This document shows, piece by piece, positions 35,275-52,736 of a stretch of DNA of 64,000 nucleotides. Location: assembly GCA_028713045.1 (NCBI GenBank), contig JAQTOY010000002.1, forward strand, positions 60 through 64,059, written 5' to 3'. Source of the stretch: Candidatus Nanoarchaeia archaeon. Lineage in GTDB: Archaea; Nanobdellota; Nanobdellia; Pacearchaeales; GW2011-AR1. The translations under genes were made by a program, and so were the position numbers. Within the stretch, counting starts at the first letter, position 1. Every line of letters starts with the position of its first letter. The notes under the pieces were generated by a model that did no database searches, was not told the origin of the DNA, and saw nothing but the letters and a program-made list of their open reading frames with translations.

Positions 35275-36492
35275 TTATCTTCTGCTCAACATCTGGTCAA
35301 CAAAATTTCCAACTCTCATTCTCATAACATTTCCGGGAAGAACAATTGATGGAGGAGGATTATATCCTCTTTCTCGCATTCCTTCGAAAATTCTTTCTCT
35401 CCAGTATTTTTGTTGACTCCCCGGTTCAATATCTGGAAAGTCTTCAAGAACACCCTCTGGAGAATATTGTTCAAAAACTTTTCTAAAAATCTGGCCAGTA
35501 ATATGCTCAACCCCTCCATCCATTACAAGAGCATCAACTTGTCCAGTATTGCAAATATTCATAGCAGTACAAATTCCAAATGCGGCAAAGACATTTGTTC
35601 CCCCATATTTTCCAAGAGTTGCAAGTTCATCAGCAACTTTTTTTCCAAGTTTCCCAACTGTACCGCCAGGGTTGAGGAAATAATCTCCAGTGTCTTCAAT
35701 AACTAATACATTATATGTTCTTGAAGAAGCTTTTCCCGGAACTGAATAAACCATGCAATCAGGAAATTTTTCAATTAATGGAACAGTCCGGTCATTTTTA
35801 TTTCTAATTCTATTAGCATAATCTGTTATTTTTCTAGTCTCAATTTCAGAATGTCTAACCATGCCTTGTTCATGCTCTCTTCTTATTGCCTCAAGCTCAA
35901 ATTCAGTCATTGCTTTAACCTTATCAACATCTCCTGCTTGCATTGCTTCATTTATAGTCCTATTCTTGCATAAAATTGGAGGTAATTTAAATCCTCTTTC
36001 TTTAAGTGAACACATAATCGCAAGATAAACCGATTCATAAAAACTATCGGAGCCATCCGGACGTCTTAGGGATTCTAAGGTGACTGTTTCATAGTCCATA
36101 TAACCATATGACCCAACATTCATACCTCCAATCGCATGAACTAAACTTATTATTCTCTCTCTATCAACTATTCTTGGATCTTCATTTATTTTACTATCAT
36201 TAAGAAATGTTGAAAGGCTTCCCGAACTCTGAAAAATTATTTCATCATCAAACATTATTTTATATTTTTGTTGACACCATCTATCTACTCCCCCTCTATG
36301 AAGTTCCCTCTTAAAGTTATGCTGAAAATCTACGTGATATCCTCGCCCCAATCTTAGAGTTTCTCGAAATTTTATTTCTCTTCTAATTCTTCCATCAAAT
36401 TTTTGAGGTTTTAATACTAATTCTGCTTCTTGATGTGTAACTGCTGATAAAACCTCTAATGAGTCTCTCAAAGTATCTTCTAAGTCTTCCAT
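35275..36492 (-). CDS. hypothetical protein (orphan class), 405 aa; weak receiver-like C-terminal segment
   Basis: Intact ORF. NVLVIEDTGD...VDALVMDGGVEHITGQIF is only loosely CheY-like. Confidence 0.6.
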   Translation of the reverse strand: MEDLEDTLRDSLEVLSAVTHQEAELVLKPQKFDGRIRREIKFRETLRLGRGYHVDFQHNFKRELHRGGVDRWCQQKYKIMFDDEIIFQSSGSLSTFLNDSKINEDPRIVDRERIISLVHAIGGMNVGSYGYMDYETVTLESLRRPDGSDSFYESVYLAIMCSLKERGFKLPPILCKNRTINEAMQAGDVDKVKAMTEFELEAIRREHEQGMVRHSEIETRKITDYANRIRNKNDRTVPLIEKFPDCMVYSVPGKASSRTYNVLVIEDTGDYFLNPGGTVGKLGKKVADELATLGKYGGTNVFAAFGICTAMNICNTGQVDALVMDGGVEHITGQIFRKVFEQYSPEGVLEDFPDIEPGSQQKYWRERIFEGMRERGYNPPPSIVLPGNVMRMRVGNFVDQMLSRR

Positions 36493-36570
36493 AGTATCTA
36501 TTATAAGAATTCTTTTTAAGACGTTTTTAAATCTTTTGAAATTGAATATCGGACATTAATTAATAAATAT

Positions 36571-36921
36571 TCAGGGATTTTTTCTTTCTAAAGATTTTAC
36601 AGATCCAAGTGAATAAGCAGTATAGCTAGTAACATCTCCTTTATCTGGGATTGACTCTGAAAATAAAAGCATAATCTCTCCGGTTCTAGATGGATCATAA
36701 ACTCCTAAGGCATAACCTCTATAAACCGGACTAGTATCTGTAAGAACTTCTCCCTTATGTAAACCATTTTGAATTTCTAATCCTTGAACCGTGGAGGTAG
36801 TATCATCAAAGGTTAAATATACTAATCTTCTTCCAACCCCTCTTCTTTTAATAACCGGAAAACATTCTCTAGCTATTGGTAATTTTTCCCCAAAGAGCTT
36901 TCTTAATTCTCTAGATTCCAT
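36571..36921 (-). CDS. hypothetical protein (orphan class), 116 aa
   Basis: Intact ORF directly downstream of EF-2 on the same strand. Confidence 0.5.
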   Translation of the reverse strand: MESRELRKLFGEKLPIARECFPVIKRRGVGRRLVYLTFDDTTSTVQGLEIQNGLHKGEVLTDTSPVYRGYALGVYDPSRTGEIMLLFSESIPDKGDVTSYTAYSLGSVKSLERKNP

Positions 36922-36984
36922 TCTTTTAAAATAAATATTTGATTAATAAATGTTATTGTATCGAAAGAACTCTTTTAAAACTTT

Positions 36985-39180
36985 TTACTCATTCTCAGCC
37001 ATTCCTTTTCTATCTCTAATCTTCTTTACAATCATTGGCTGAATATTCCCCGGAACTCTTTCAAATGCCTGATCAACCATGCTGAAAGTTCCTCTTCCTT
37101 CTGTTGCGCTTCTTATTGCGCTTGCCAATCCAATCATTTCAGCAACAGGCATTTTTACTTTTATGATGACATGTCCTGCACCTTGTTCAATATCAATAAC
37201 CTGCCCTCTTCTTCCTGAAATCAATTTTGTCAAATCTCCCATATGCTCCAAAGGTCCTTCCATCAATAATGTCTGAACAGGCTCAAATAAAACTGGTGTT
37301 GCAGTTCCAATGCTCATTCTTATTGAATCTCTTACCGCAGGGTAAACCTGGGCCGGTCCTCTGTGAATAGCATCTTCATGTAGTTTCATATCAACAATGG
37401 AAATTTTTAATTTAGTGCACGGCTCTCTTGCAAGAGTTCCAGCATCAATTACTTGTTCAATTCCATCCATTATCATTTCAATTACCTCTCCAATATGAAC
37501 TTCTCCCTTGACTTTGTTTAATATAGCACATTCTTTGTAAATCTCAATATATTGTCTTACCTCTTCATTACTGCATCCTAAATCATTCAACTGCTTCCAT
37601 ATTTCTTCCTCTCTTTTCTTGAATCTTCTTTCAGGAAGTTCTCTTTTCTTGATTGCTTCATAAACAGCATCCTCCAAAGGTTCAACTTCAATAAAAAAAT
37701 AGTTGTGCTTGTTTGGCGATTTTCCTTCTCCAGTCTGTCCTTTTTTCATGACGGTTTCTCTGTAAACAACAATTGGCTCTGAAGTTTTTACTTCAACTCC
37801 TTTTTCTGTTTTTATTCTGTTTTCAATGATTTCAAGATGCAGTTCTCCCATTCCACTCATAAGATTCTCTCCAGTTTCTTCATTAATTTCAATTTTCAAA
37901 GTTGGATCTTCTTTTGCAACTTTTTTCAAAACTTCAATTAATTTTGGTAAATCTTGAGGTTTTGGAACTGAAATTGATTTTGTAATTACTGGATCAAAAA
38001 TATGTTTTATACCTTCAAAAGGCTCCTGTGGTTCTAAAGTTATGGTCTCTCCTGGCTGTGAAACAACTCCGGTTATTGCAAGAACATTTCCAGCTCCAAC
38101 TTCTTCCAATTGCTCAGGTTTTATTCCATTATAGACCAATACCTGCTGAATTTTTTGTTTTTTCTTATCATTATTAAGATAAACATCCATTCCAGCCCTT
38201 AAAGTTCCTGAGAACAATCTTCCAGCATTAATTTCTTTTCCACTTTTTGATTCAATAATCGTGTTTGTGATTACAAAAGCAACTTCTGCTTTAGGGTCAC
38301 AATTAATCAAACCTTTTCCAAATTCGCTTTCAGGATCTCCAGGCCATATTTTTGGAATCCTATATTTTTGAGCTTCAAGTGGTGATGGCAGATGTTTGAC
38401 AACAGCATCCAATAAAACTTCAAATAATGGCGCTTTGTCCCAGACCCATTTTTTTCTTTCTTCCTCACTCATGCTTCCATCATATAATGAAATAACATCC
38501 TTAAAACCAACTCCTTTCTTTTTCATGAAACCTACGGATAATGCCCAGTTGTCTCTAGCGCTTCCAAAGATGACGCTTCCATCAGCAACATTGACTTTCC
38601 ACTTTTCCCTGAATTGAGGTTCTGCAATCTGTTCAATCAATAGATTAAACTGATTGATTATTTTCATGAATCTTTCCTGCATTCCTTCAGGAGTAAGTTT
38701 CAGTTCTTTTATCATCCTGTCAACTTTATTTATAAAAAGTATTGGTTTTACTCTTTCACGCAAAGCCTGCTTCATGACCGTCTCTGTTTGAGGCATTATC
38801 CCCTCTGAAGCACAAACTAATACAATTGTTCCATCAATTGCCCTCATAGCTCTTGTGACATTTCCTGAAAAATCAACATGTCCAGGAGTATCAATCAGGT
38901 TAATCAAATATTCATTTCCTCCGAACTCATGAGCCATTGAAACATTTGCAGCATCAACAGTCAATAATCTTTCCTGCTCATCTGAATGCTGCCAAGTTGC
39001 CATTCCTCCCTCCAAATCTCCAGCAAGCTTCTCGCTCATCATTCCAGCGGCAGCAAGAAGGTTGTCAGTAAGCGCAGTTTTTCCATGATGGATATGCGCT
39101 GAAGTAGCGATGTTTCTAATATGGTTCTGGGTTGCAATCAATCTCTTGATTTTCTCGAATGGTGTTTCTTTCTTTGCCAT
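36985..39180 (-). CDS. fusA: translation elongation factor aEF-2
   Basis: AHIHHGKT, DTPGH, NKVD and the diphthamide-loop HEDAIHRGPAQ. Confidence 0.95.
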   Translation of the reverse strand: MAKKETPFEKIKRLIATQNHIRNIATSAHIHHGKTALTDNLLAAAGMMSEKLAGDLEGGMATWQHSDEQERLLTVDAANVSMAHEFGGNEYLINLIDTPGHVDFSGNVTRAMRAIDGTIVLVCASEGIMPQTETVMKQALRERVKPILFINKVDRMIKELKLTPEGMQERFMKIINQFNLLIEQIAEPQFREKWKVNVADGSVIFGSARDNWALSVGFMKKKGVGFKDVISLYDGSMSEEERKKWVWDKAPLFEVLLDAVVKHLPSPLEAQKYRIPKIWPGDPESEFGKGLINCDPKAEVAFVITNTIIESKSGKEINAGRLFSGTLRAGMDVYLNNDKKKQKIQQVLVYNGIKPEQLEEVGAGNVLAITGVVSQPGETITLEPQEPFEGIKHIFDPVITKSISVPKPQDLPKLIEVLKKVAKEDPTLKIEINEETGENLMSGMGELHLEIIENRIKTEKGVEVKTSEPIVVYRETVMKKGQTGEGKSPNKHNYFFIEVEPLEDAVYEAIKKRELPERRFKKREEEIWKQLNDLGCSNEEVRQYIEIYKECAILNKVKGEVHIGEVIEMIMDGIEQVIDAGTLAREPCTKLKISIVDMKLHEDAIHRGPAQVYPAVRDSIRMSIGTATPVLFEPVQTLLMEGPLEHMGDLTKLISGRRGQVIDIEQGAGHVIIKVKMPVAEMIGLASAIRSATEGRGTFSMVDQAFERVPGNIQPMIVKKIRDRKGMAENE

Positions 39181-39368
39181 ATTAAAATTTATGTTTTTGA
39201 GCAGTTGTTTTACTATTAATTCTTAGAAGTTGTTAACACTGAGAAAATCTCTCATAAGATTTTCGAGGTGATCAAGAACTTGCACTCAGGTTTTAACCCG
39301 AAGTTCTTGACAACTAATAATATAATATTTATCAATAATAAAACAGGTTTAAAAATCTTACTAAACCC

Positions 39369-39836
39369 CTATTGTTGTTTGGGTTCGATACTTAAAATGT
39401 CTATACTTGTTAACTCATCTGCTATTTTTTCAAGTTCTGCACCAGTTTTATAAGTAACATCCCTTTTTTCAACATACCTAATCTTTACAACCTCGCCAAT
39501 ATCTCGAAATTCTTTTTTATTAACTTCTTTAATATAAGTTCCATCATTTATCCGAATATACAAAAAAAATCTTTCAGGTTGTGAAACTTCTATTGGAACT
39601 TTATGCGAATGATGATTCTTAAAATATCCGTAAGAAATTTCAACTTCTTTTTTTATTTCAAACCCCGGAGAGTAGCTTCTTCCAATAACCCTGGCTTCGC
39701 TCGCTCCATCAACAGATTCTGTCTTGACAATTGTTGCATTAGGATTAAAAGACGGTTCTGTTTCTTTTTTTGCATTTTGAGAACATCCCAACAAACAGAC
39801 CCCTGCAAAAACCAAATTTAATAATTTTAATTTCAT
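39369..39836 (-). CDS. putative lipoprotein
   Basis: Signal peptide with lipobox: MKLKLLNLVFAGVCLLGCS. Confidence 0.6.
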   Translation of the reverse strand: MKLKLLNLVFAGVCLLGCSQNAKKETEPSFNPNATIVKTESVDGASEARVIGRSYSPGFEIKKEVEISYGYFKNHHSHKVPIEVSQPERFFLYIRINDGTYIKEVNKKEFRDIGEVVKIRYVEKRDVTYKTGAELEKIADELTSIDILSIEPKQQ

Positions 39837-39885
39837 TTTGTTTTAATTGATTTCTATTTTATCATAGAACTATTTTTCAAAGAAT

Positions 39886-40455
39886 TTAATCAAAGGTCCA
39901 TGATAAAGGTTCATGATTTTGAGAGTAACCTATTTCCAATCTTTTTTTATGAAACATTACTCTATGCGGAAACTGATTTGCGGCCCTAAGGACTCTTCCA
40001 AGATCCATCTTTGCCGGAATTTGTGTTAATCCAAATCCATTTCCTAGACTCATTTCATCGGTTAATTTCTTATGATTCATAGCATCAACAAGTTCTCTGG
40101 TTAAAGCATGACCCGATGTAAGAAGCATAAAATAAGTTCTCCAAGCGGGCTGACCTCTTAGAGTCGGTCTTATTCTATAAACAGTTTCTGGAACCTCATA
40201 AGCTGCGGCTTGAGTTTCATCAATTGATGCTTGGACAATTGGCGTAAGACCTTGAGAGTCAAAATTAAGCAAATCTAAGGAATCAAGTTTTCCAGAATTA
40301 CCATATCTCCAAATTAAAGCAGACCTGTGACGTTCATAACAGCGTGCCAATACAAAAACCGGATTTTTTTCAGCAACAATTATTAATTTATCATCACCCA
40401 AATAACCCCTGTATTGAGGGCACTCTGAGGTTTCATCTGTCATGAAATTATTCAT
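39886..40455 (-). CDS. hypothetical protein (orphan class), 189 aa
   Basis: Intact ORF between S7 and EF-2 on the same strand. Confidence 0.55.
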   Translation of the reverse strand: MNNFMTDETSECPQYRGYLGDDKLIIVAEKNPVFVLARCYERHRSALIWRYGNSGKLDSLDLLNFDSQGLTPIVQASIDETQAAAYEVPETVYRIRPTLRGQPAWRTYFMLLTSGHALTRELVDAMNHKKLTDEMSLGNGFGLTQIPAKMDLGRVLRAANQFPHRVMFHKKRLEIGYSQNHEPLSWTFD

Positions 40456-41176: not shown

Positions 41177-41413
41177 TTATCTTGGTAATTTTTTTATTAA
41201 GCCTAAGTTTTCAGGAAATACTTCCCACATCTCTTCTTCTAAAGAGCTTTCCTTCGCTTCTGGAGTTAAAGGTCTTCTGGTTGGACCTTGTTGCGGAATA
41301 TAATCTTCTCCAGGATTATTATCGCCATAAAGATTTCTTGGATCCATTGGATCAGTTGGACTCTTTCCAGTATAATCTGGTTTTCCATCATTTTTATCGT
41401 CATCATCTCCCAT
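41177..41413 (-). CDS. hypothetical acidic/Pro-rich small protein (orphan class), 78 aa, probably disordered
   Basis: ORF fills the S12-S7 spacer exactly, leaving 2-nt and 5-nt gaps. Confidence 0.45.
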   Translation of the reverse strand: MGDDDDKNDGKPDYTGKSPTDPMDPRNLYGDNNPGEDYIPQQGPTRRPLTPEAKESSLEEEMWEVFPENLGLIKKLPR

Positions 41414-41418
41414 CTTAT

Positions 41419-41655
41419 TTAAGCAGCCCTCCCATATAATACATAGTCAAAAACTTTTCGAGTTAAAAATCTGTTTCCATGTTCATCTTGAACATGATAA
41501 ACATTATGAGGATTATTAATCTGAGCCCATAATCTAATTTTTAATCGAGGGTCTCGATTATAGTTTACTGCAATAGTTCCTCTAAAATGTCGGTCCCTTG
41601 CACATTCATCAAGCTCTTCTACACTCTGAACTATTCTTATTTTTGATTTCGTCAT
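41419..41655 (-). CDS. hypothetical small protein (orphan class), 78 aa
   Basis: ORF starts 1 nt after the S12 stop codon. Confidence 0.5.
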   Translation of the reverse strand: MTKSKIRIVQSVEELDECARDRHFRGTIAVNYNRDPRLKIRLWAQINNPHNVYHVQDEHGNRFLTRKVFDYVLYGRAA

Positions 41656-44153: not shown

Positions 44154-47100
44154 CTATTTCTTCCCATTGACAATCGGTTCAGTATCTTTTTTAGAAGTGT
44201 CCTTTGTACCCTTTGTTAGATAACTGACACTTTTGTCTTCCTTTGGCTTCTTGTCTGTCAATGGTCCAGTAACCTCAACCATGAGTCCAGGAAGTCCTGT
44301 TCCAACAGGAGCTGGCTGATTGAGTATTATATTTTCAATCACTGAATCTAATTCATCCTTGTTTTCTTTCAAAGTTGCATTAACAAAATGTTTGACCGGA
44401 GTTTCAAAACTTGCTCTTGCAAGTATTGATGATTTCTGTGATATTATACCCATTCTCGTTATTCCCTTTACAATTCCTTCAGAAGTCATTGAGTCTGCAA
44501 TTAATCTCGAATGTCTTTTATCAATATCCAACCCCTGGGAATTTATAACTTTTTCAATCTCTTTCATTATTGCTGCTCTTGCAACCTCAACACCAAAAAT
44601 ATCGCATATCTCATGCAAATCATTGCTGATTGTTCTTGTTCTATCAACCCCTTTAAAATTAATTATATCTTTAAGATTTGTTCCTGCAGTCAATATTACA
44701 TATCCTTCTTCTCTTTTAACAACAAGTATTTGTTCAATTCCTTTTATTCCAGAAATTTGAGTTTCCTTTATTTTCTCTTTTAGTTTGTAAATCTCCTTAA
44801 AATTCATGTCTTTAGTACTTATTGTTATAGAATTTCCAGAAGCCTTGCAATTAGATTCTATCTTTCCACTCTCATTTAATTTTTTAACAATAGTTTCAAC
44901 TGAAGAATGGACTCTTTTGACTGCGTCGCTGTCGATAAGCGCTTCAATTCTTTTGTCAGAAAAATTTATTTTTATTTCTTTTATTATATCTTTTAGTTTA
45001 ATTTCCTGAATTTTTTCAGCGATTACTTTTGCATCTTTTTCGTTGTTATATTCTTTTTCCAAATAAATCTCCATTGCAGGTGTTGAAGGTGTTCTTCTAG
45101 CATCAAATATTTCTATGAGTCTTGGAAGTCCTAATGTAACCTGCATCTCAGCAACTCCTGCAAAGTGGAATGTTGAAAGTGCCATCTGTGTTGAAGGTTC
45201 TCCAAAAGATTGAGCAGTTACAATTCCGATCGCTTCTCCAGGAGAAATGTCTTTATCTTTATGCAATTCTGAAACATCTTTTCCATCTTCTCCATATTTG
45301 AACTGGATTATATTTTCAGAGCCATCTCTGACAGTATGGTCATATTCAACTTTAATATCCTGCAATGCATTTGCGAGTCTTCTGTAAAGATATCCTGATT
45401 TTGGAGTTCGGAGTGCAGTATCCATCAGCGCATCTCTTCCAGTTATCGCTCCAAAAAAGAATTCGCAAGGCTCTAGTCCTTTTAAGAATGAACTATAAAT
45501 GAATCCTCTTGATTTAGGAGATAAGTCTCCTTCCTTAAAAAAAGAAAGTGTTCTGTTGGTGAATCCAATTCCAATTCTCTTTGACCATAACGCCTGCTGT
45601 CCAACACAACATGCCATTTGGGTTATATTAAGAACATTTCCTCCAGCTCCAGAATCTATCATTATGCTTACGGGGCTGCTTTTAGAGACTTCTTTTCCTA
45701 CAATTTTTCCAATTTTTGTTCTTATTCCATTTAATGTCTGCAATATTTTGATTTCTCTTGTTTCCTCTGCAGTTTTTCCAGGTATAATCTCCAGTTCTCC
45801 AGTTCTGTAGCTTTCTATTATATTGCCAGTTTCTTTTTCAGCTTCGGCAACTATCTCTGCAGTCGAGCTCTTGACTTTATCGTTTACATTCAAATCATCC
45901 ACCGATATAGTGAATCCATGATTGGTTAGAAATTGAACTCCCATTGTAAATGCATTTTCCAAAACCTTTATTGTTTTTTTCCTTCCAGTATCTTTATCAA
46001 GATGCTTCAAAAGATTTCCACTTTCAACTGCAAATACATTTTCATCAACCACGCCTTCTTCAATCTGCCCGTTCTTGACTACAAAATTATCTCCGATTTT
46101 TGTTTTACTTTTATAATCTGTATCTGGTATTATTTTTGATATTATCTCATTTCCATTTAGAATATTCTTTGAGAGCTTAGTGTTTATTCCAGATTGGTAT
46201 AATAATTGAAATGCATCTGCCTTTGAAACATTTGATTTGCTTAAAATAAAATTTCCAGTGACTGCATCCTGGGTGCATCCCAAAAGATTGCTGTTGTCTT
46301 TGCATGACATTAAGTTTCTGTTGACGTCCATTAATATTTTTGCTTCTGCTCTTGCTTCTTCTGTCTGAGGAACATGAATATTCATTTCATCTCCATCAAA
46401 ATCCGCATTGTAAGGTGGAGCAGTAGCCGGATGTATCCTGAATGTTTTATAGGGAAGGACTTTTACAAAATGCGCCATTATACTGGCTTTATGCAGGCTC
46501 GGATGTCTATTGAATAAAACAACGTCTCCATCAATCAATTGTCTTTCAACAACATAACCAGGCACTAATTCATCCAATATTTCTTGTTTTAAATCCGAAG
46601 TTATTTTCTTTCTTCTTCCATCAGGCCTTATGATATAATTTGCAGTAGGATATTTTTCATTTAAAATTATTTTCTTTAATTTTTCCATATTTGAAGAATT
46701 AACCTTTTCATTTACAGTCAAGATTTCTGCAATCTCAAATGGAATTCCTACTTCATTTAATTTCAATGCAGGATCAGGAGAGATTACTGTTCTTGATGAA
46801 AAATTGACTCTTTTTCCTGCAAGATTATGTCTGATTCTACCTTCTTTTCCTTTTATTCTTTCAGTTATTGTTTTTAACGGCTGTCCGCTTCTATGTCTAG
46901 CCGGAGGAATTTTTGTTATTGAATTATCAAAAAAAGTTGTTACATGATACTGCAACAAATCCCACAAATCTTCTATAATAACCTCTGGAGCTCCGGCATT
47001 CAGGTTTTCCCATAATCTCTGGTTTGCTCTTATGATATCAGAAAGTTTGTGAGTCAAATCATCTTCGCTTCTTTCTCCGGATTCTAAAGTTATTGAAGGT

Positions 47101-47708
47101 CTTACTGTTACAGGAGGAACCAATAATAAGGTAAGCACAGACCATTCTGGTCTGAAAATTTTTGGATTTATTCCAGCAAGTTTTGCTTCATCGTCAGGAA
47201 TTCTTGCAAGTTTTTCTCTTATCTCTCCAGGAAATAATCTTCTTTTTCCTATTCTAAATGTAGATGGTTTTTCTAATTTTATTCTTTCTTGTTCGGCATG
47301 ACAGTAAGGACATATTTTTGCATCTTTTGCTCTTTTTATCCGGTCTTTAACTGCCTTGTATTTTATCATGTCTTTTTCTTTTATCATAAATCTATGGCAT
47401 TCAGAGCAAAAGCATCTTAAGAATAATTCAACAACCGGAACATATTTTATATGAAAAATAGGTCTTGCAAGTTCAATACATCCGGGATGTCCCAAACATT
47501 CTTTTAATCTGCCTCCGCAGGTCCTGCACCTTACTCCCGGATCAATTGCCCCTAATCTTAAGTCCATTAATCCTCCATCAACAGGATATCCATCAACATC
47601 ATAAAGTTCAGGAGTTATTATTTTTGCCTTTGATATTTTTTTAATCTCGTCCGGACTAAGAAGAGAAAATTGCAAACTCTCAACTTGTTTTCGTACTGGT
47701 TTTACCAT
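44154..47708 (-). CDS. rpoA: DNA-directed RNA polymerase subunit A, unsplit (A' and A'' regions in one 1184-aa ORF)
   Basis: N-terminal zinc motifs. Catalytic NADFDGDEMN. Trigger-loop block GEPSTQMALSTFHFAG lies in the same frame, with no stop between the A' and A'' regions. Confidence 0.95.
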   Translation of the reverse strand: MVKPVRKQVESLQFSLLSPDEIKKISKAKIITPELYDVDGYPVDGGLMDLRLGAIDPGVRCRTCGGRLKECLGHPGCIELARPIFHIKYVPVVELFLRCFCSECHRFMIKEKDMIKYKAVKDRIKRAKDAKICPYCHAEQERIKLEKPSTFRIGKRRLFPGEIREKLARIPDDEAKLAGINPKIFRPEWSVLTLLLVPPVTVRPSITLESGERSEDDLTHKLSDIIRANQRLWENLNAGAPEVIIEDLWDLLQYHVTTFFDNSITKIPPARHRSGQPLKTITERIKGKEGRIRHNLAGKRVNFSSRTVISPDPALKLNEVGIPFEIAEILTVNEKVNSSNMEKLKKIILNEKYPTANYIIRPDGRRKKITSDLKQEILDELVPGYVVERQLIDGDVVLFNRHPSLHKASIMAHFVKVLPYKTFRIHPATAPPYNADFDGDEMNIHVPQTEEARAEAKILMDVNRNLMSCKDNSNLLGCTQDAVTGNFILSKSNVSKADAFQLLYQSGINTKLSKNILNGNEIISKIIPDTDYKSKTKIGDNFVVKNGQIEEGVVDENVFAVESGNLLKHLDKDTGRKKTIKVLENAFTMGVQFLTNHGFTISVDDLNVNDKVKSSTAEIVAEAEKETGNIIESYRTGELEIIPGKTAEETREIKILQTLNGIRTKIGKIVGKEVSKSSPVSIMIDSGAGGNVLNITQMACCVGQQALWSKRIGIGFTNRTLSFFKEGDLSPKSRGFIYSSFLKGLEPCEFFFGAITGRDALMDTALRTPKSGYLYRRLANALQDIKVEYDHTVRDGSENIIQFKYGEDGKDVSELHKDKDISPGEAIGIVTAQSFGEPSTQMALSTFHFAGVAEMQVTLGLPRLIEIFDARRTPSTPAMEIYLEKEYNNEKDAKVIAEKIQEIKLKDIIKEIKINFSDKRIEALIDSDAVKRVHSSVETIVKKLNESGKIESNCKASGNSITISTKDMNFKEIYKLKEKIKETQISGIKGIEQILVVKREEGYVILTAGTNLKDIINFKGVDRTRTISNDLHEICDIFGVEVARAAIMKEIEKVINSQGLDIDKRHSRLIADSMTSEGIVKGITRMGIISQKSSILARASFETPVKHFVNATLKENKDELDSVIENIILNQPAPVGTGLPGLMVEVTGPLTDKKPKEDKSVSYLTKGTKDTSKKDTEPIVNGKK

Positions 47709-47713
47709 TTTAA

Positions 47714-47932
47714 TTAAGCACCATTTGGAAAATCCCGGCTATAATTTATATCTACAGCATCATAACAGTTTAAGTAACCTTGAGGATATCTGCATCTTTC
47801 GCCTGTTTGTTTAAACCTGTAGCCACATGCTTCAAACATTTCGCATAAGGGATGTTTAGTTTGAGTCATATCTACTGGAGTTCTAACTGGCTCACCAATA
47901 CCTTCATCAGTAATCAAAAAAAGTTGTACCAT
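47714..47932 (-). CDS. Cys4 mini-protein (72 aa), paralogous module to 47934..48212
   Basis: C30-x5-C36-x10-C47-x8-C56. This matches the spacing and several flanking residues of the adjacent ORF. Confidence 0.6.
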   Translation of the reverse strand: MVQLFLITDEGIGEPVRTPVDMTQTKHPLCEMFEACGYRFKQTGERCRYPQGYLNCYDAVDINYSRDFPNGA

Positions 47933-47933
47933 T

Positions 47934-48212
47934 TTATTTTTCTCCCTCTTCAGAGCTAGGTGTATAAGTTGTTAAATCAATGCCAGAATCATTAATAACA
48001 GTCAATTCTATGCCGGATTCAGGTAGTGATTCTCTATCTTCTGCGGTTTCTAAATTATCACATCCAACATATCCGACTGTACTTCTGCAACCAGTATAAG
48101 TACGTTTATTTCCGTACAAACATACATTTGCCATCTGACAGACTATTGCTGTTCTAGATTTAGTATTTGTGCCATCCATTCCAAATTTTTCTCCAGATAT
48201 TGAAACTGCCAT
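47934..48212 (-). CDS. Cys4 mini-protein (92 aa)
   Basis: C25-x5-C31-x10-C42-x8-C51. Starts 1 nt after the rpoB stop codon. Confidence 0.6.
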   Translation of the reverse strand: MAVSISGEKFGMDGTNTKSRTAIVCQMANVCLYGNKRTYTGCRSTVGYVGCDNLETAEDRESLPESGIELTVINDSGIDLTTYTPSSEEGEK

Positions 48213-48213
48213 C

Positions 48214-51200
48214 TTATTCGTATTTATTTTTTAGATTAAATTTAGTTCTAATATGAAGAGATTGTATCTCATCAACCAATAATTTGAATGCATAGGATAC
48301 TTCAACAGGTTCAATTTCCTGCGAGTTGCACATTGAACAGATTAGTTTATTTCTCAATGTGTCTTCAATTGCAACTGAACCGCATTTTGAACAAATATGC
48401 AAAATGACCTTATCTGAATCATATCTTTCTTTTAGCAATAGAGAAGCTCCATGAGCCACCAATGCCTGTTGCTCCATTTCTCCCAATCTTAATGCTCCGC
48501 CTTTTGCTCTTCCTTCAATTGGCTGTCTTGTCAATAATGTAACTTTTCCTGATGCACGAGCATGAAGTTTATTCGCAACCATGTATTTTAATTTCAAATA
48601 ATACATATCTCCAACATAAATTTTAAGGTTCATCATCCTTCCAGTTATTCCATTATAAACAGTTTCTTTTCCATCTTCTCTGAATCCTAATTCTTTAAGT
48701 TGTTCTTCCAAATCCTCAATTTTTTGTCCAGAGAATCCAGTTCCATCAATTATTTTTCCATTTAAACATCCAACCTTTCCAGCCAATAACTCTACAAGAT
48801 AACCGACGCTCATTCTTCCAGGGATTGAATGTGGATTGAATATTATATCGGGCCTGATTCCTCTTGAAGTGAAAGGAACATCATTCTCAGGAATTATTGC
48901 TCCAACAACTCCTTTCTGTCCATGAGGAGTTGCAAATTTATCTCCTAATTCCGGTTTTCTCAAATCTCTTGTCTTGACTCTTATCACCTTATTTCCTTGT
49001 CCATCTTCTGTAATGAAAACAGATTCAACTGTTCCTTCTTCCTCTTGCCTTATTACTGAGCTTGATTCATTCTTTGCTTTGACAGAAATTTCTCTTACTT
49101 CTGAAAGGAATTTGGGAGGAGAAATTTTTCCAATGACAACTTCTCCAGATCTCATTGCAGCTTCTGGAAAAACAATTCCATCATCTTCTAGATATTTGTA
49201 GCTTTCTTCTGTCCTGTAACCAGAAACATCTTTTTCAGGAATGCATACTTCATCCTTTAATCCTCCGGCATAATTAAGTTCAACCGAAGTGTAGGGCCGG
49301 TAATATGTGCTTCTTGCAAATCCCCTGTCAACGCTTCCTTTATTTAGAATCAACGCATCTTCCATATTATATCCATCATGTGTCAAAACAGCAACGACAA
49401 CATTTTGTCCTGCCGGATGAACATTCAATGTGTCATAAACAAAACTTCTTACAATTGGTTTTTGAGGATAATGCAAGATATTGACATCAGTGTCAATTCT
49501 GCATAGAAAATTTGCAGCATAAAGCCCAAGGGCCTGTTTGTAGCTTTTGCTTCCCTTTATCAGTTTAGCGCAGGAATTATAATTAATGTAAGGGACGAGT
49601 GATGTAACAACTCCTAATAAATCTATTCTGTCAATCTGCAGATGAGTATGTTCATCTGTTATTTCTTTTTCATCCAAGGCAACAAGAGAATTTTCCTCTT
49701 CGGCAGTATCCAGATATTCAATAACTCCATTTTTAAGCAAGTCATTCCAGTTTATGCTTCCATTTCTAAGTGCATTAATATGATCTGCGTTTAATCTTGA
49801 TTTTCCATTCTCAGCAACAATCAAAGGCCTCATAATTCTTCCGACTTCTGTTGAAAGAATAACATTATCGAGAGATTTGTTATATCTTATGCTCAATTCA
49901 ATCGGTAATTCGCCTCTCCTTCTTTTTTCTTTCAAATCTTTTATTAATCTCTCGCAATTATCCGTATTTCCTATGAATCTTCCATTTAGGAAAATATCAT
50001 TCCCATTTCCTTCAACTTCTCTTTTAACACCTAAATTGGCCAAGATTTTAATCAGTTTTTCATCATCAATATCCGCCCTTGTTGAGATTTTTGTCAGGAT
50101 TGCAAGATTTTTTCTTAATCCTATCTCAGTACCTTCAGGAGTTTCAACTGGACAGAACCTTCCATAATGTGTTGGATGAAGGGTTCTTGCAAGAAAATTT
50201 TCCTGTTCGCCAGGAAGCATTGATGAGACTCTCTGCAATTGTGAAAGAATAGCGAGATAATTTGTCTTGTCCATGTTCTGCGTAACTCCAGTTCTTTCTC
50301 CAATCCAGTTACCTGTTGCAATAGCGCTTTCAACCCTATGTGTGAATAATGTTGATTTAGCAATTGTCTTTATTGAATAGAATTTTTTTCTTTTTTGGAT
50401 TTTCTGCAAAGAATGGACTATATCTCTCAAAAATATATTCATGTTTATTCTGAATAAATCTGCCAATAAATCTCCAGACATTCTCACTCTTTTATTTGCA
50501 TAATGGTCTTTATCAGTTAAATTCTCAGGATTTTCTTTTGCAATAAAAAATTGTTTTATGAACTTACAGAGAGTTATGGCCTTTTCAATTCTATGCTCTT
50601 TTTTTAATCCAATATGAGGGAGAAAATATGAATCAAGTCTTTGTTTTATCCTATCTAGAATCTCTTTTTTTGTTCCTTGAAGGGAAGTATGTTCTGCAAT
50701 AGCCATCATGGCATCTTCCTCATTTTTTATTGCAGTGTATTCGTAGAGATTGACTATCAGGCTATCATTCTCTTTTCCAATGTATTTTGCAATCTCACTT
50801 TCTTTTGTTAGTCCAAGAGCTTTTAATATTATTATGATGGGAATGTTCTTGAATCTTGAAAAACTGACTTCAACAATACCTTCATTTGTGTCTGTTATTG
50901 AGATTGGAATCCTGTAGCTACCTCTTTTTGAAAATAATCTGAGCATAAGCTTGCCTCTTGATTTTTCAATAAAGGGCTGATTTTCCGCCAAATCTTCTGT
51001 CATTACAATTATTCTTTCATTTCCATTTATTATAAAATATCCTCCAGGCTCTAGAGGGTCTATGTACTCTTTTATCAATTCTTCTTTATTCATATTTGAA
51101 AGATTGCAAACCTCGCTCTTTACAATAATAGGTATTTTTCCGATTTCAACTTCCTGACTTTCTATCTGTCCGCCTTGTTTTATTGTTATTTCAACATTTA

Positions 51201-51489
51201 ACGGAGCAGCATAGGTCAATCCTCTTATTCTTGCTTCGGTAGGGGTTATCAAATGAGAGCTTCCATCCGCCTCAACTATTTGAGGTCTTTCAATTTTTAT
51301 TTTTCCAAGTTTGATTTCAATATCTTCTTCAGGAGAAAGGCTATCATTTAGTTCCTCAATTATTTCCTGCATTCTGAAGTTTATGAAATTGTTAAAAGAA
51401 GTAATATTTGACTCAACGAGGCTGTGCTCCTCTAGATATTTTTTAACTAGCAGGTGCTCTTCTTTCTGTTGCTGTTTTTCAATGTTCAT
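48214..51489 (-). CDS. rpoB: DNA-directed RNA polymerase subunit B (unsplit)
   Basis: 1091 aa with conserved blocks including GDKFATPHGQKGV and GEMEQQALVAHGA, and a C-terminal zinc motif CSKCG...CSMC. Confidence 0.95.
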   Translation of the reverse strand: MNIEKQQQKEEHLLVKKYLEEHSLVESNITSFNNFINFRMQEIIEELNDSLSPEEDIEIKLGKIKIERPQIVEADGSSHLITPTEARIRGLTYAAPLNVEITIKQGGQIESQEVEIGKIPIIVKSEVCNLSNMNKEELIKEYIDPLEPGGYFIINGNERIIVMTEDLAENQPFIEKSRGKLMLRLFSKRGSYRIPISITDTNEGIVEVSFSRFKNIPIIIILKALGLTKESEIAKYIGKENDSLIVNLYEYTAIKNEEDAMMAIAEHTSLQGTKKEILDRIKQRLDSYFLPHIGLKKEHRIEKAITLCKFIKQFFIAKENPENLTDKDHYANKRVRMSGDLLADLFRINMNIFLRDIVHSLQKIQKRKKFYSIKTIAKSTLFTHRVESAIATGNWIGERTGVTQNMDKTNYLAILSQLQRVSSMLPGEQENFLARTLHPTHYGRFCPVETPEGTEIGLRKNLAILTKISTRADIDDEKLIKILANLGVKREVEGNGNDIFLNGRFIGNTDNCERLIKDLKEKRRRGELPIELSIRYNKSLDNVILSTEVGRIMRPLIVAENGKSRLNADHINALRNGSINWNDLLKNGVIEYLDTAEEENSLVALDEKEITDEHTHLQIDRIDLLGVVTSLVPYINYNSCAKLIKGSKSYKQALGLYAANFLCRIDTDVNILHYPQKPIVRSFVYDTLNVHPAGQNVVVAVLTHDGYNMEDALILNKGSVDRGFARSTYYRPYTSVELNYAGGLKDEVCIPEKDVSGYRTEESYKYLEDDGIVFPEAAMRSGEVVIGKISPPKFLSEVREISVKAKNESSSVIRQEEEGTVESVFITEDGQGNKVIRVKTRDLRKPELGDKFATPHGQKGVVGAIIPENDVPFTSRGIRPDIIFNPHSIPGRMSVGYLVELLAGKVGCLNGKIIDGTGFSGQKIEDLEEQLKELGFREDGKETVYNGITGRMMNLKIYVGDMYYLKLKYMVANKLHARASGKVTLLTRQPIEGRAKGGALRLGEMEQQALVAHGASLLLKERYDSDKVILHICSKCGSVAIEDTLRNKLICSMCNSQEIEPVEVSYAFKLLVDEIQSLHIRTKFNLKNKYE

Positions 51490-51626: not shown

Positions 51627-51836
51627 TTATACTGAAACAACCCTGAAATAAAAACCCTTTTTTCCGTCAGAAGTTCTTTCTATTCTTATTACATCTCCAA
51701 TCTCACATCCTTCTGGCAAAGCCGGATCAGTTATTTTAATTTTTGGCAATTGTGATAAAGAAATATTATATTCTGCAAGAAGTTTATCAGTTTCTTCTGC
51801 TTTTAGTTTGATGTGCTTTGGTTGTAATAGGTGCAT
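51627..51836 (-). CDS. rpoH: DNA-directed RNA polymerase subunit H (Rpb5 C-terminal domain)
   Basis: KHIKLKAEETDKLLAEYNISLSQLPKIKITDPA...GDVIRIERTS....YFRVV. Confidence 0.85.
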   Translation of the reverse strand: MHLLQPKHIKLKAEETDKLLAEYNISLSQLPKIKITDPALPEGCEIGDVIRIERTSDGKKGFYFRVVSV

Positions 51837-52661: not shown

Positions 52662-52736
52662 TGGGGACGAGGGGATTTGAACCCCTGACACCTTGCTTAA
52701 AAGGCAAGTACTCTAACCGGGCTGAGCTACGCCCCC
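52662..52736 (-). tRNA. tRNA-Lys (anticodon UUU)
   Basis: Hand-folded on the minus strand. Acceptor GGGGGCG/CGTCCCC, anticodon arm CTTGC-CTTTTAA-GCAAG, T arm AGGGG-TTCAAAT-CCCCT. 75 nt, no encoded CCA. Confidence 0.9.

Follow-up and report, generated by a model that had tools for sequence, protein, structure and literature searches.

Two tandem four-cysteine mini-genes between rpoB and rpoA as probable passengers at a turnover-prone operon joint in Pacearchaeota

In the 64,000-nucleotide stretch of Candidatus Nanoarchaeia archaeon DNA analyzed here (the window; contig JAQTOY010000002.1), the joint between rpoB and rpoA is occupied by two adjacent genes for four-cysteine mini-proteins, ORF92 and ORF72. 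Because this joint is either empty or otherwise filled in relatives, we consider the anciently duplicated pair to be optional passengers of the operon: probably dispensable genes at a joint that is prone to turnover, and not subunits of RNA polymerase (RNAP). Few gene orders in archaea are better conserved than that of rpoH, rpoB and rpoA; even so, small genes are gained, lost and exchanged at its central joint in this DPANN lineage, between species with 87% identical polymerase DNA. No description of this rpoB-rpoA slot was found in the literature that we searched.

Results

Two four-cysteine ORFs fill the rpoB-rpoA joint

On the minus strand, the genes are ordered RpoH, RpoB, ORF92, ORF72 and RpoA (Table 1). 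An earlier note on this DNA had described a pair of four-cysteine ORFs with the pattern C-x5-C-x10-C-x8-C between rpoB and rpoA, and we confirmed both the coordinates and the peptides. The ORF92 peptide contains IVCQMANVCLYGNKRTYTGCRSTVGYVGCD and that of ORF72 contains PLCEMFEACGYRFKQTGERCRYPQGYLNCYD. The cysteines are spaced 5/10/8 in each, and 11 of the 31 module positions are identical. As the note had stated, the two modules share a methionine two residues past Cys1, a tyrosine two residues past Cys2, an arginine immediately after Cys3 and a Gly-Tyr ahead of Cys4. Direct comparison of the two proteins gave a BLASTP E value of 4e-6 and a Smith-Waterman score of 62, which none of 20,000 shuffles reached (mean 23.6, sd 4.5); with the cysteines masked, 96 of 5,000 shuffles attained the score of the pair. 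Thus, the proposal that the ORFs are duplicated copies of one four-cysteine module is borne out by the alignment.

Table 1. Features of the rpoH-rpoB-rpoA region, in positions of the window
Feature	Position	Strand	Description
RpoH	51627-51836	-	upstream of rpoB
rpoB	48214..51489	-	1091 aa, flanks the slot upstream; Rpb2 Pfam domains 1-7, all seven present
rpoB stop / ORF92 start	48210..48216	-	TAA-G-ATG
ORF92	47934..48212	-	92-aa four-Cys mini-protein
Cys module of ORF92	48060..48140	-	C25-x5-C31-x10-C42-x8-C51; counted from the first position of the ORF, 48212
ORF92 stop / ORF72 start	47923..47939	-	TAA-A-ATG, AAATAAAATGGTACAAC; repeat copy 1
ORF72	47714..47932	-	72-aa paralogue of ORF92 with identical Cys spacing
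Cys module of ORF72	47765..47845	-	C30-x5-C36-x10-C47-x8-C56; counted from the first position of the ORF, 47932
ORF72 stop / rpoA start	47699..47715	-	TAA-TTAAA-ATG, AATTAAAATGGTAAAAC; repeat copy 2
rpoA	44154..47708	-	1184 aa, unsplit, downstream flank of the slot; Rpb1 domains 1-5

Together, ORF92 and ORF72 exactly fill the 505-nt gap between rpoB and rpoA on the strand of the operon. From the genome GC content of 32%, roughly 7-8% of random codons are calculated to be stops, so it is unlikely that chance would leave the gap filled by frames that stay open for 92 and 72 codons. Additionally, the GC content at first and third codon positions (0.42 and 0.18 in ORF92, 0.48 and 0.22 in ORF72) is that of rpoB, rpoA and nearby ribosomal genes, and this native pattern makes both ORFs look like real, anciently duplicated genes. 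No DNA similarity between the two copies was detectable. Within the module, their codons agree at 20 of 31 second positions, compared with 13 of 31 first and 12 of 31 third positions. Second positions that are the most conserved, with DNA similarity gone, are what one would expect of an old duplication kept under constraint at the protein level. Judged by composition and codon agreement, both ORFs are genuine protein-coding genes that go back to an old tandem duplication, and they encode a species-specific four-cysteine mini-protein.

Both products are acidic and hydrophilic, with pI values of 4.45 (ORF92) and 4.87 (ORF72). In ORF92, the Cys module (residues 25-51) is weakly basic and is followed by an acidic tail with a net charge of -10 over residues 47-92. 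Neither sequence contains a signal peptide, a transmembrane (TM) segment or a hydrophobic N-terminus, and each has the makeup of a Cys4 mini-domain, with four invariant cysteines inside ~30 residues of a cytoplasmic protein. Because the four cysteines are conserved and no secretion signal is present, they most likely hold a metal ion, which is probably zinc. The bound metal would fold a core of ~30 residues flanked by acidic, probably disordered tails. AlphaFold models of the two proteins were of low confidence (pLDDT 36 and 40).

Junction sequences and translational coupling

The spacers that separate rpoB, ORF92, ORF72 and rpoA measure 1, 1 and 5 nt. A 17-nt direct repeat, identical at 15 of 17 positions, flanks ORF72 and covers the stop-start junction together with the first three codons. 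Just upstream of the ORF92/ORF72 junction, a GGAG-like run (~47940-47948) lies inside the end of ORF92, where the sequence reads GAGGGAGAAAAATAAA followed directly by ATGGTA. These junction sequences support the proposed translational coupling of ORF92 and ORF72 with the two polymerase genes, and from them we infer expression by termination-reinitiation. Ribosomes that finish rpoB would restart at TAA-G-ATG into ORF92, restart again at TAA-A-ATG into ORF72, aided perhaps by the GGAG-like run in the end of ORF92, and restart a third time into rpoA after leaving ORF72.

In relatives with an empty slot, the rpoB/rpoA junction reads GAA-TAA-A-ATG-G, and comparison with these relatives indicates that the first ORF of a cassette begins where rpoA ancestrally began. 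In a set of 111 cassette starts, the stretch of 12 nt past the ATG is slightly more similar to the start of the local rpoA than in permuted pairings (4.83 vs 4.59 of 12 nt, P = 0.02); locus L241 is a striking case of this resemblance, and such cases are few. The comparison hints, weakly, that insertion may copy the junction.

No known RNA was found in the region, and the only tRNA is at 52662-52736. An internal oligo-T terminator is not supported: compared with the T runs found within rpoA, that of ORF72 (T7) is not in excess. The rpoA open frame spans ~1170-1220 aa in nearly all of 40 relatives, which indicates that the A'/A'' fusion is general in the group.

The pair is confined to a single contig

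ORF92 and ORF72 occur on one contig only across the cluster, genome, metagenome and viral collections that were searched. A word-indexed search of 5.8 billion clusters with each ORF as query and a full HMMER profile run against 1.84 billion representatives both returned only ORF92 and ORF72 themselves, and when contigs from genomes, metagenomes and viruses were scanned with degenerate patterns, no homologue besides the two came up. Six-frame searches of 40 relatives did not reveal a homologue, and the pair was found neither in 48 congeners nor in 400 genomes of the order. Within the genome itself, a relaxed four-Cys pattern matched none of the remaining small ORFs with tight coupling. The earlier statement that no known family can be assigned also holds: Pfam and NCBIfam scans at E<=10 gave nothing relevant to either ORF, PHROGs and PADLOC gave no significant match, no hit attained the cut-off of a family, and the best E value in a PDB sequence/profile search was 0.37.

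The rpoB-rpoA joint turns over between species

We took a census of 74 Pacearchaeota species in which rpoB and rpoA lie on one contig, and scored the joint as occupied if at least 120 nt separate the two genes (the species scored as empty have 0-83 nt). By this measure, the joint is occupied in 32 species and empty in 42. Occupancy is 23 of 36 among near relatives, defined by an RpoA N-terminus at least 75% identical, vs 8 of 37 among more distant ones, and 54 of 72 metagenome loci are occupied. Inserts range from 126 to 2184 nt and consist of between one and four small ORFs on the same strand, 40-240 codons each, with TAAA-ATG-type junctions and, often, a GGAG-like run in the last codons of the ORF upstream. 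Families that recur in the slot comprise a 2-TM protein, several Cys-rich proteins, several Cys-free proteins and one TAT-signal protein. In Pacearchaeota, a DPANN group, the joint is thus a hot spot for small, same-strand, closely packed ORFs that differ from one species to the next.

On a tree of RpoB plus RpoA, slot content differs between sister species. All three of the closest relatives, whose rpoB/rpoA DNA is ~87-89% identical, carry unrelated inserts. In the nearest species, RIFOXYC1_FULL_30_12 (rpoB/rpoA DNA 86.7-87.2% identical), homology ends 16 nt past rpoB and returns 8 nt ahead of the rpoA ATG, and the 502-nt insert in its slot holds other ORFs that are unrelated to ORF92 and ORF72. 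Two Hainich groundwater contigs, with an RpoA N-terminus 96% identical, also have other slot content, namely a 94-aa two-Cys ORF and a 104-aa four-Cys ORF that differs in spacing and sequence. In one species, at least eight samples agree in the arrangement of a different slot cassette, which places the turnover between species and not between samples.

The census yielded several further observations. In a congener (L024 / L110), a 115-aa TAT-signal protein (Pfam E=5.5e-6) stands alone in the rpoB-rpoA slot, so that a predicted exported protein is translationally coupled to the polymerase genes. The rpoB of L209 (GCA_018304055.1) is called as two overlapping genes of 687+ and 354 aa; L210-L212, from the same population, have one rpoB of 1088 aa, and the split is probably an assembly frameshift error. 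Two archaeal rpoB-rpoA contigs (L113 and L120) were deposited as 'Candidatus Dojkabacteria bacterium' and 'bacterium' and probably come from mis-binned or mislabelled MAGs.

Four-cysteine ORFs are enriched at the slot

Among 43 slot ORFs of at most 120 aa, 13 contain no cysteine, 12 contain four and 4 contain five. The distribution is bimodal, with peaks at 0 and 4 that both exceed binomial expectation (P about 0.002). An independent metagenome set again peaks at 0 and 4, and 23 of its 61 new ORFs have at least four cysteines. ORFs with at least four cysteines account for 17 of 45 at rpoB-rpoA vs 1 of 36 at the S12-S7 joint (Fisher 1e-4), and for ORFs of at most 120 aa the comparison is 16 of 43 in the slot vs 65 of 383 in a crude small-ORF set of the genome (P=0.003). 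This enrichment is a feature that a simple passenger picture does not predict. Additionally, in loci that have any Cys-rich ORF, the rpoA-proximal one is Cys-rich in 13 of 13 and 17 of 19 cases (30 of 32 overall), which would allow for a link to RpoA that the passenger reading leaves unexplained.

ORF72 aligns with the correspondingly placed 71-aa ORF of a congener at z=5.2 (1 of 2000 shuffles), a marginal result for one pair. HMMs of the other four-Cys families ranked ORF92 and ORF72 no higher than their own shuffles, hhalign among the four-Cys slot families gave probabilities below 1%, and a six-member four-Cys profile searched against 5.8 billion clusters returned only its own members. A single superfamily of all four-Cys slot ORFs is unsupported by the comparison with shuffles and by hhalign. 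Since homology among the families is not demonstrable, the four-Cys mini-ORFs form a class by shared features and not a family.

Small genes at other core-operon joints

We searched 401 genomes of the order with a profile of one four-Cys family, IC-x6-C-x-G-x-RDP-x2-F-x3-C-x6-C, and confirmed the neighbours of its members by Pfam. Of 17 matches, 7 lie between rpoB and rpoA, 3 beside spt4 (between rpoE' and spt4, or right after spt4), 2 between L7Ae and S28e, 2 between S17 and L14, and 3 elsewhere (family loci include L297, L299, L300, L303, L305, L310 and L311). The S12-S7 joint is variable as well, with inserts of 160-870 nt in 26 of 30 congeners (loci L064-L093) and two coupled 78-aa orphans in the window (41177-41655, minus strand). 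The presence of a four-Cys family at ribosomal joints, together with the variable S12-S7 joint, indicates that small genes colonise several joints of core operons, both transcriptional and ribosomal.

A small acidic protein that ends in ...LNLR(K/R)x(H/P)P(K/R) recurs directly upstream of S7 in many congeners; its member in the window (41177-41413) ends in ...GLIKKLPR. The window also contains same-strand ORFs in the 35275-40455 interval of the minus strand: two of 189 and 155 aa, the latter lipoprotein-like, between S7 and EF-2, and two of 116 and 405 aa between EF-2 and EF-1alpha. The 2-TM family, characterized by ...W(R/Y)(I/F)FGNSPT... and the ending ...LIKNKL(K/E)IK, is multi-copy (up to 7 per genome) and scattered through genomes, where it usually abuts unrelated genes. 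It occupies the rpoB-rpoA slot of at least 6 congeners (family loci L178, L191, L194, L180, L181 and L193). A viral origin of the 2-TM cassette is not supported, since no relative was found on viral contigs.

Canonical zinc parts of the polymerase are in place

The earlier note had also proposed that the pair represents a new RNAP-associated factor. This is not supported, as the pair is absent from relatives and 42 of 74 joints are empty. Where the note had looked to a linkage of the Cys pattern with rpoB/rpoA in relatives, the pattern is absent and the three closest relatives carry other inserts; its absence from relatives is what the note itself had named as refuting the proposal. Lineage-wide conservation with the polymerase genes, as expected of an RNAP subunit, is lacking for ORF92 and ORF72, and their 5/10/8 spacing differs from the paired CxxC knuckles of a zinc ribbon.

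All 74 species retain, without variation, the seven cysteines that form the Zn site of the RpoA N-terminus and the four that form the site of the RpoB C-terminus. In this genome (G000), Spt4 is encoded at G000:C15, and it is present in 45 of 49 congeners. An RpoP-like 53-aa frame (G000:C44:1244-1342) scores 20.2 bits against a Pfam cut-off of 24, and no congener reaches the 24-bit cut-off for RpoP, which points either to a weak short model or to a divergent RpoP in the genus. We rejected compensation for a lost polymerase Zn site or for a lost Spt4 or RpoP, since all canonical zinc parts are present. An origin from the zinc regions of the RpoA N-terminus or the RpoB C-terminus is not supported, as similarity to them does not rise above shuffles.

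Discussion

We regard ORF92 and ORF72 as probable passengers, any function of which would be specific to the strain. It is distinctly unlikely, in our judgment, that they instead encode an optional, fast-evolving, zinc-stabilised protein that is made in step with RpoB and RpoA and binds RNAP as an accessory or modulator specific to the lineage. Tight coupling of the genes to rpoB and rpoA would suit such a role, as would the enrichment of ORFs with at least four cysteines over the S12-S7 joint (17/45 vs 1/36), their usual position next to rpoA, and the occurrence of one four-Cys family both in the slot and beside spt4 and rpoE'. However, the pair is missing from all relatives, the three closest included, and the joint is empty in 42 of 74 species. 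The spt4-adjacent family also sits inside ribosomal-protein operons, and the cassettes at the joint include membrane and TAT-signal proteins. No Zn site of RpoA or RpoB has been lost, and the genome encodes Spt4 as well as an RpoP-like frame; the pair itself shows no similarity to the RpoA N-terminus or RpoB C-terminus, no CxxC zinc-ribbon signature and no Pfam match. The ORFs might also be relay frames with little protein function, from DNA that landed between two coupled essential genes and is tolerated only if it stays open and passes ribosomes on to rpoA. Selection would in that case maintain the open frame and not the protein, which may have arisen de novo. This would agree with the lack of a homologue in any collection searched, the extreme turnover between species, the stop-start coupling kept by every slot cassette, and a calculated cysteine content of ~3% in random AT-rich sequence, compared with a slot average of 2.5-2.6%. 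We think it quite unlikely, because the four cysteines and seven other module positions are kept without DNA similarity, second codon positions are the most conserved, codon-position GC is as in real genes, and the Cys counts of the slot are bimodal and not binomial (P about 0.002), a pattern repeated in the metagenome set.

A conflict module would make the products disulfide-rich exported peptides or toxin-like effectors of the kind known from bacteriocin loci, with selection among strains, or between the archaeon and its viruses or hosts, maintaining their variability. The locus is indeed hypervariable between conserved genes, one slot cassette has a TAT signal, and a 2-TM protein directly precedes a four-Cys ORF in L051, L057 and L058. 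Yet ORF92 and ORF72 have neither a signal peptide nor a hydrophobic segment, the slot of this genome contains no membrane-gene partner, no match was obtained from PADLOC or PHROGs and no relative from viral contigs, and the 2-TM family is dispersed and mostly unpaired with Cys-rich genes; we consider the conflict module highly improbable. Foreign sequence joined into the contig during assembly, which would account for the presence of the pair on one contig only, is more improbable still, to the point of being nearly negligible: the in-frame junctions have clean stop-start signals, the composition by codon position is native, and dozens of independent assemblies have inserts of the same style at exactly rpoB-rpoA. 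Finally, the four-Cys genes could be one cargo of an undescribed, integrase-independent cassette system that inserts small ORFs without expression signals of their own where a stop and a start adjoin in core operons (rpoB-rpoA, rpoE'-spt4, L7Ae-S28e, S17-L14 and S12-S7), perhaps copies the first downstream codons, and carries Cys4 proteins that share a role linked to transcription or translation. Codon copying would preserve coupling to the essential gene, and the shared role, if true, would explain why Cys4 ORFs usually abut rpoA. This composite reading is, in our view, unlikely.

The reading of the pair as passengers has consequences for annotation, in that a gene between rpoB and rpoA is not to be assumed to encode a polymerase subunit. 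For evolution, such joints offer a natural system in which to follow the birth, spread and loss of small proteins inside essential operons. In very small genomes every gene is expected to matter, and if they are translated in step with the polymerase, ORF92 and ORF72 would be abundant proteins in organisms of this kind.

Comparison with known systems

The zinc-ribbon subunits and factors of RNAP (Rpo12/RpoP, Rpo10/RpoN, Spt4 and TFS) are likewise small proteins with four cysteines, and ORF92 and ORF72 are encoded here with RNA polymerase genes. The zinc-ribbon proteins have paired CxxC motifs, occur archaea-wide and match Pfam (RpoP PF03604, Spt4 PF06093), whereas none of these properties applies to ORF92 and ORF72. 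Lineage-specific RNAP subunits include Rpo13 of Sulfolobales and Rpo8/RpoG of Crenarchaeota. Similar to ORF92 and ORF72, these are small, belong to a single archaeal lineage and could be additions to the core polymerase; in contrast, Rpo13 and Rpo8/RpoG are conserved throughout their own lineages and our pair is confined to one species-level genome. Termination-reinitiation in archaeal operons has the same TAA-N-ATG style, with spacers of 1-5 nt, as the rpoB/ORF92/ORF72/rpoA junctions, a parallel that covers the expression of the two ORFs and not their role.

Moron-type or hitch-hiking genes and islets resemble the slot in their optional cargo, their fixed position with conserved genes on either side and their sharp breaks in homology. 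The slot differs in that its cargo consists of ORFs of 40-240 codons whose own expression signals are not apparent, and in its location, with the genes for the two largest subunits of an essential enzyme as its flanks. Integron cassette arrays, like the slot, consist of short ORFs in one orientation, packed at a fixed site and apparently served by an upstream promoter. In both, close relatives quickly gain, lose and replace cassettes, many of which have no known function. Indeed, same-strand stacking at one fixed site and turnover between relatives are both seen at rpoB-rpoA. No integrase adjoins the slot, as the three tyrosine-recombinase (Phage_integrase) matches in this genome lie on contigs C43, C62 and C32 and not on C66, the contig of the window, and no attC-like structured site was found at the slot, where only short stop-start junction repeats are present. 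Unlike an integron, the slot is situated inside an essential operon, its genes appear to be expressed through translational coupling, and several operon joints are involved.
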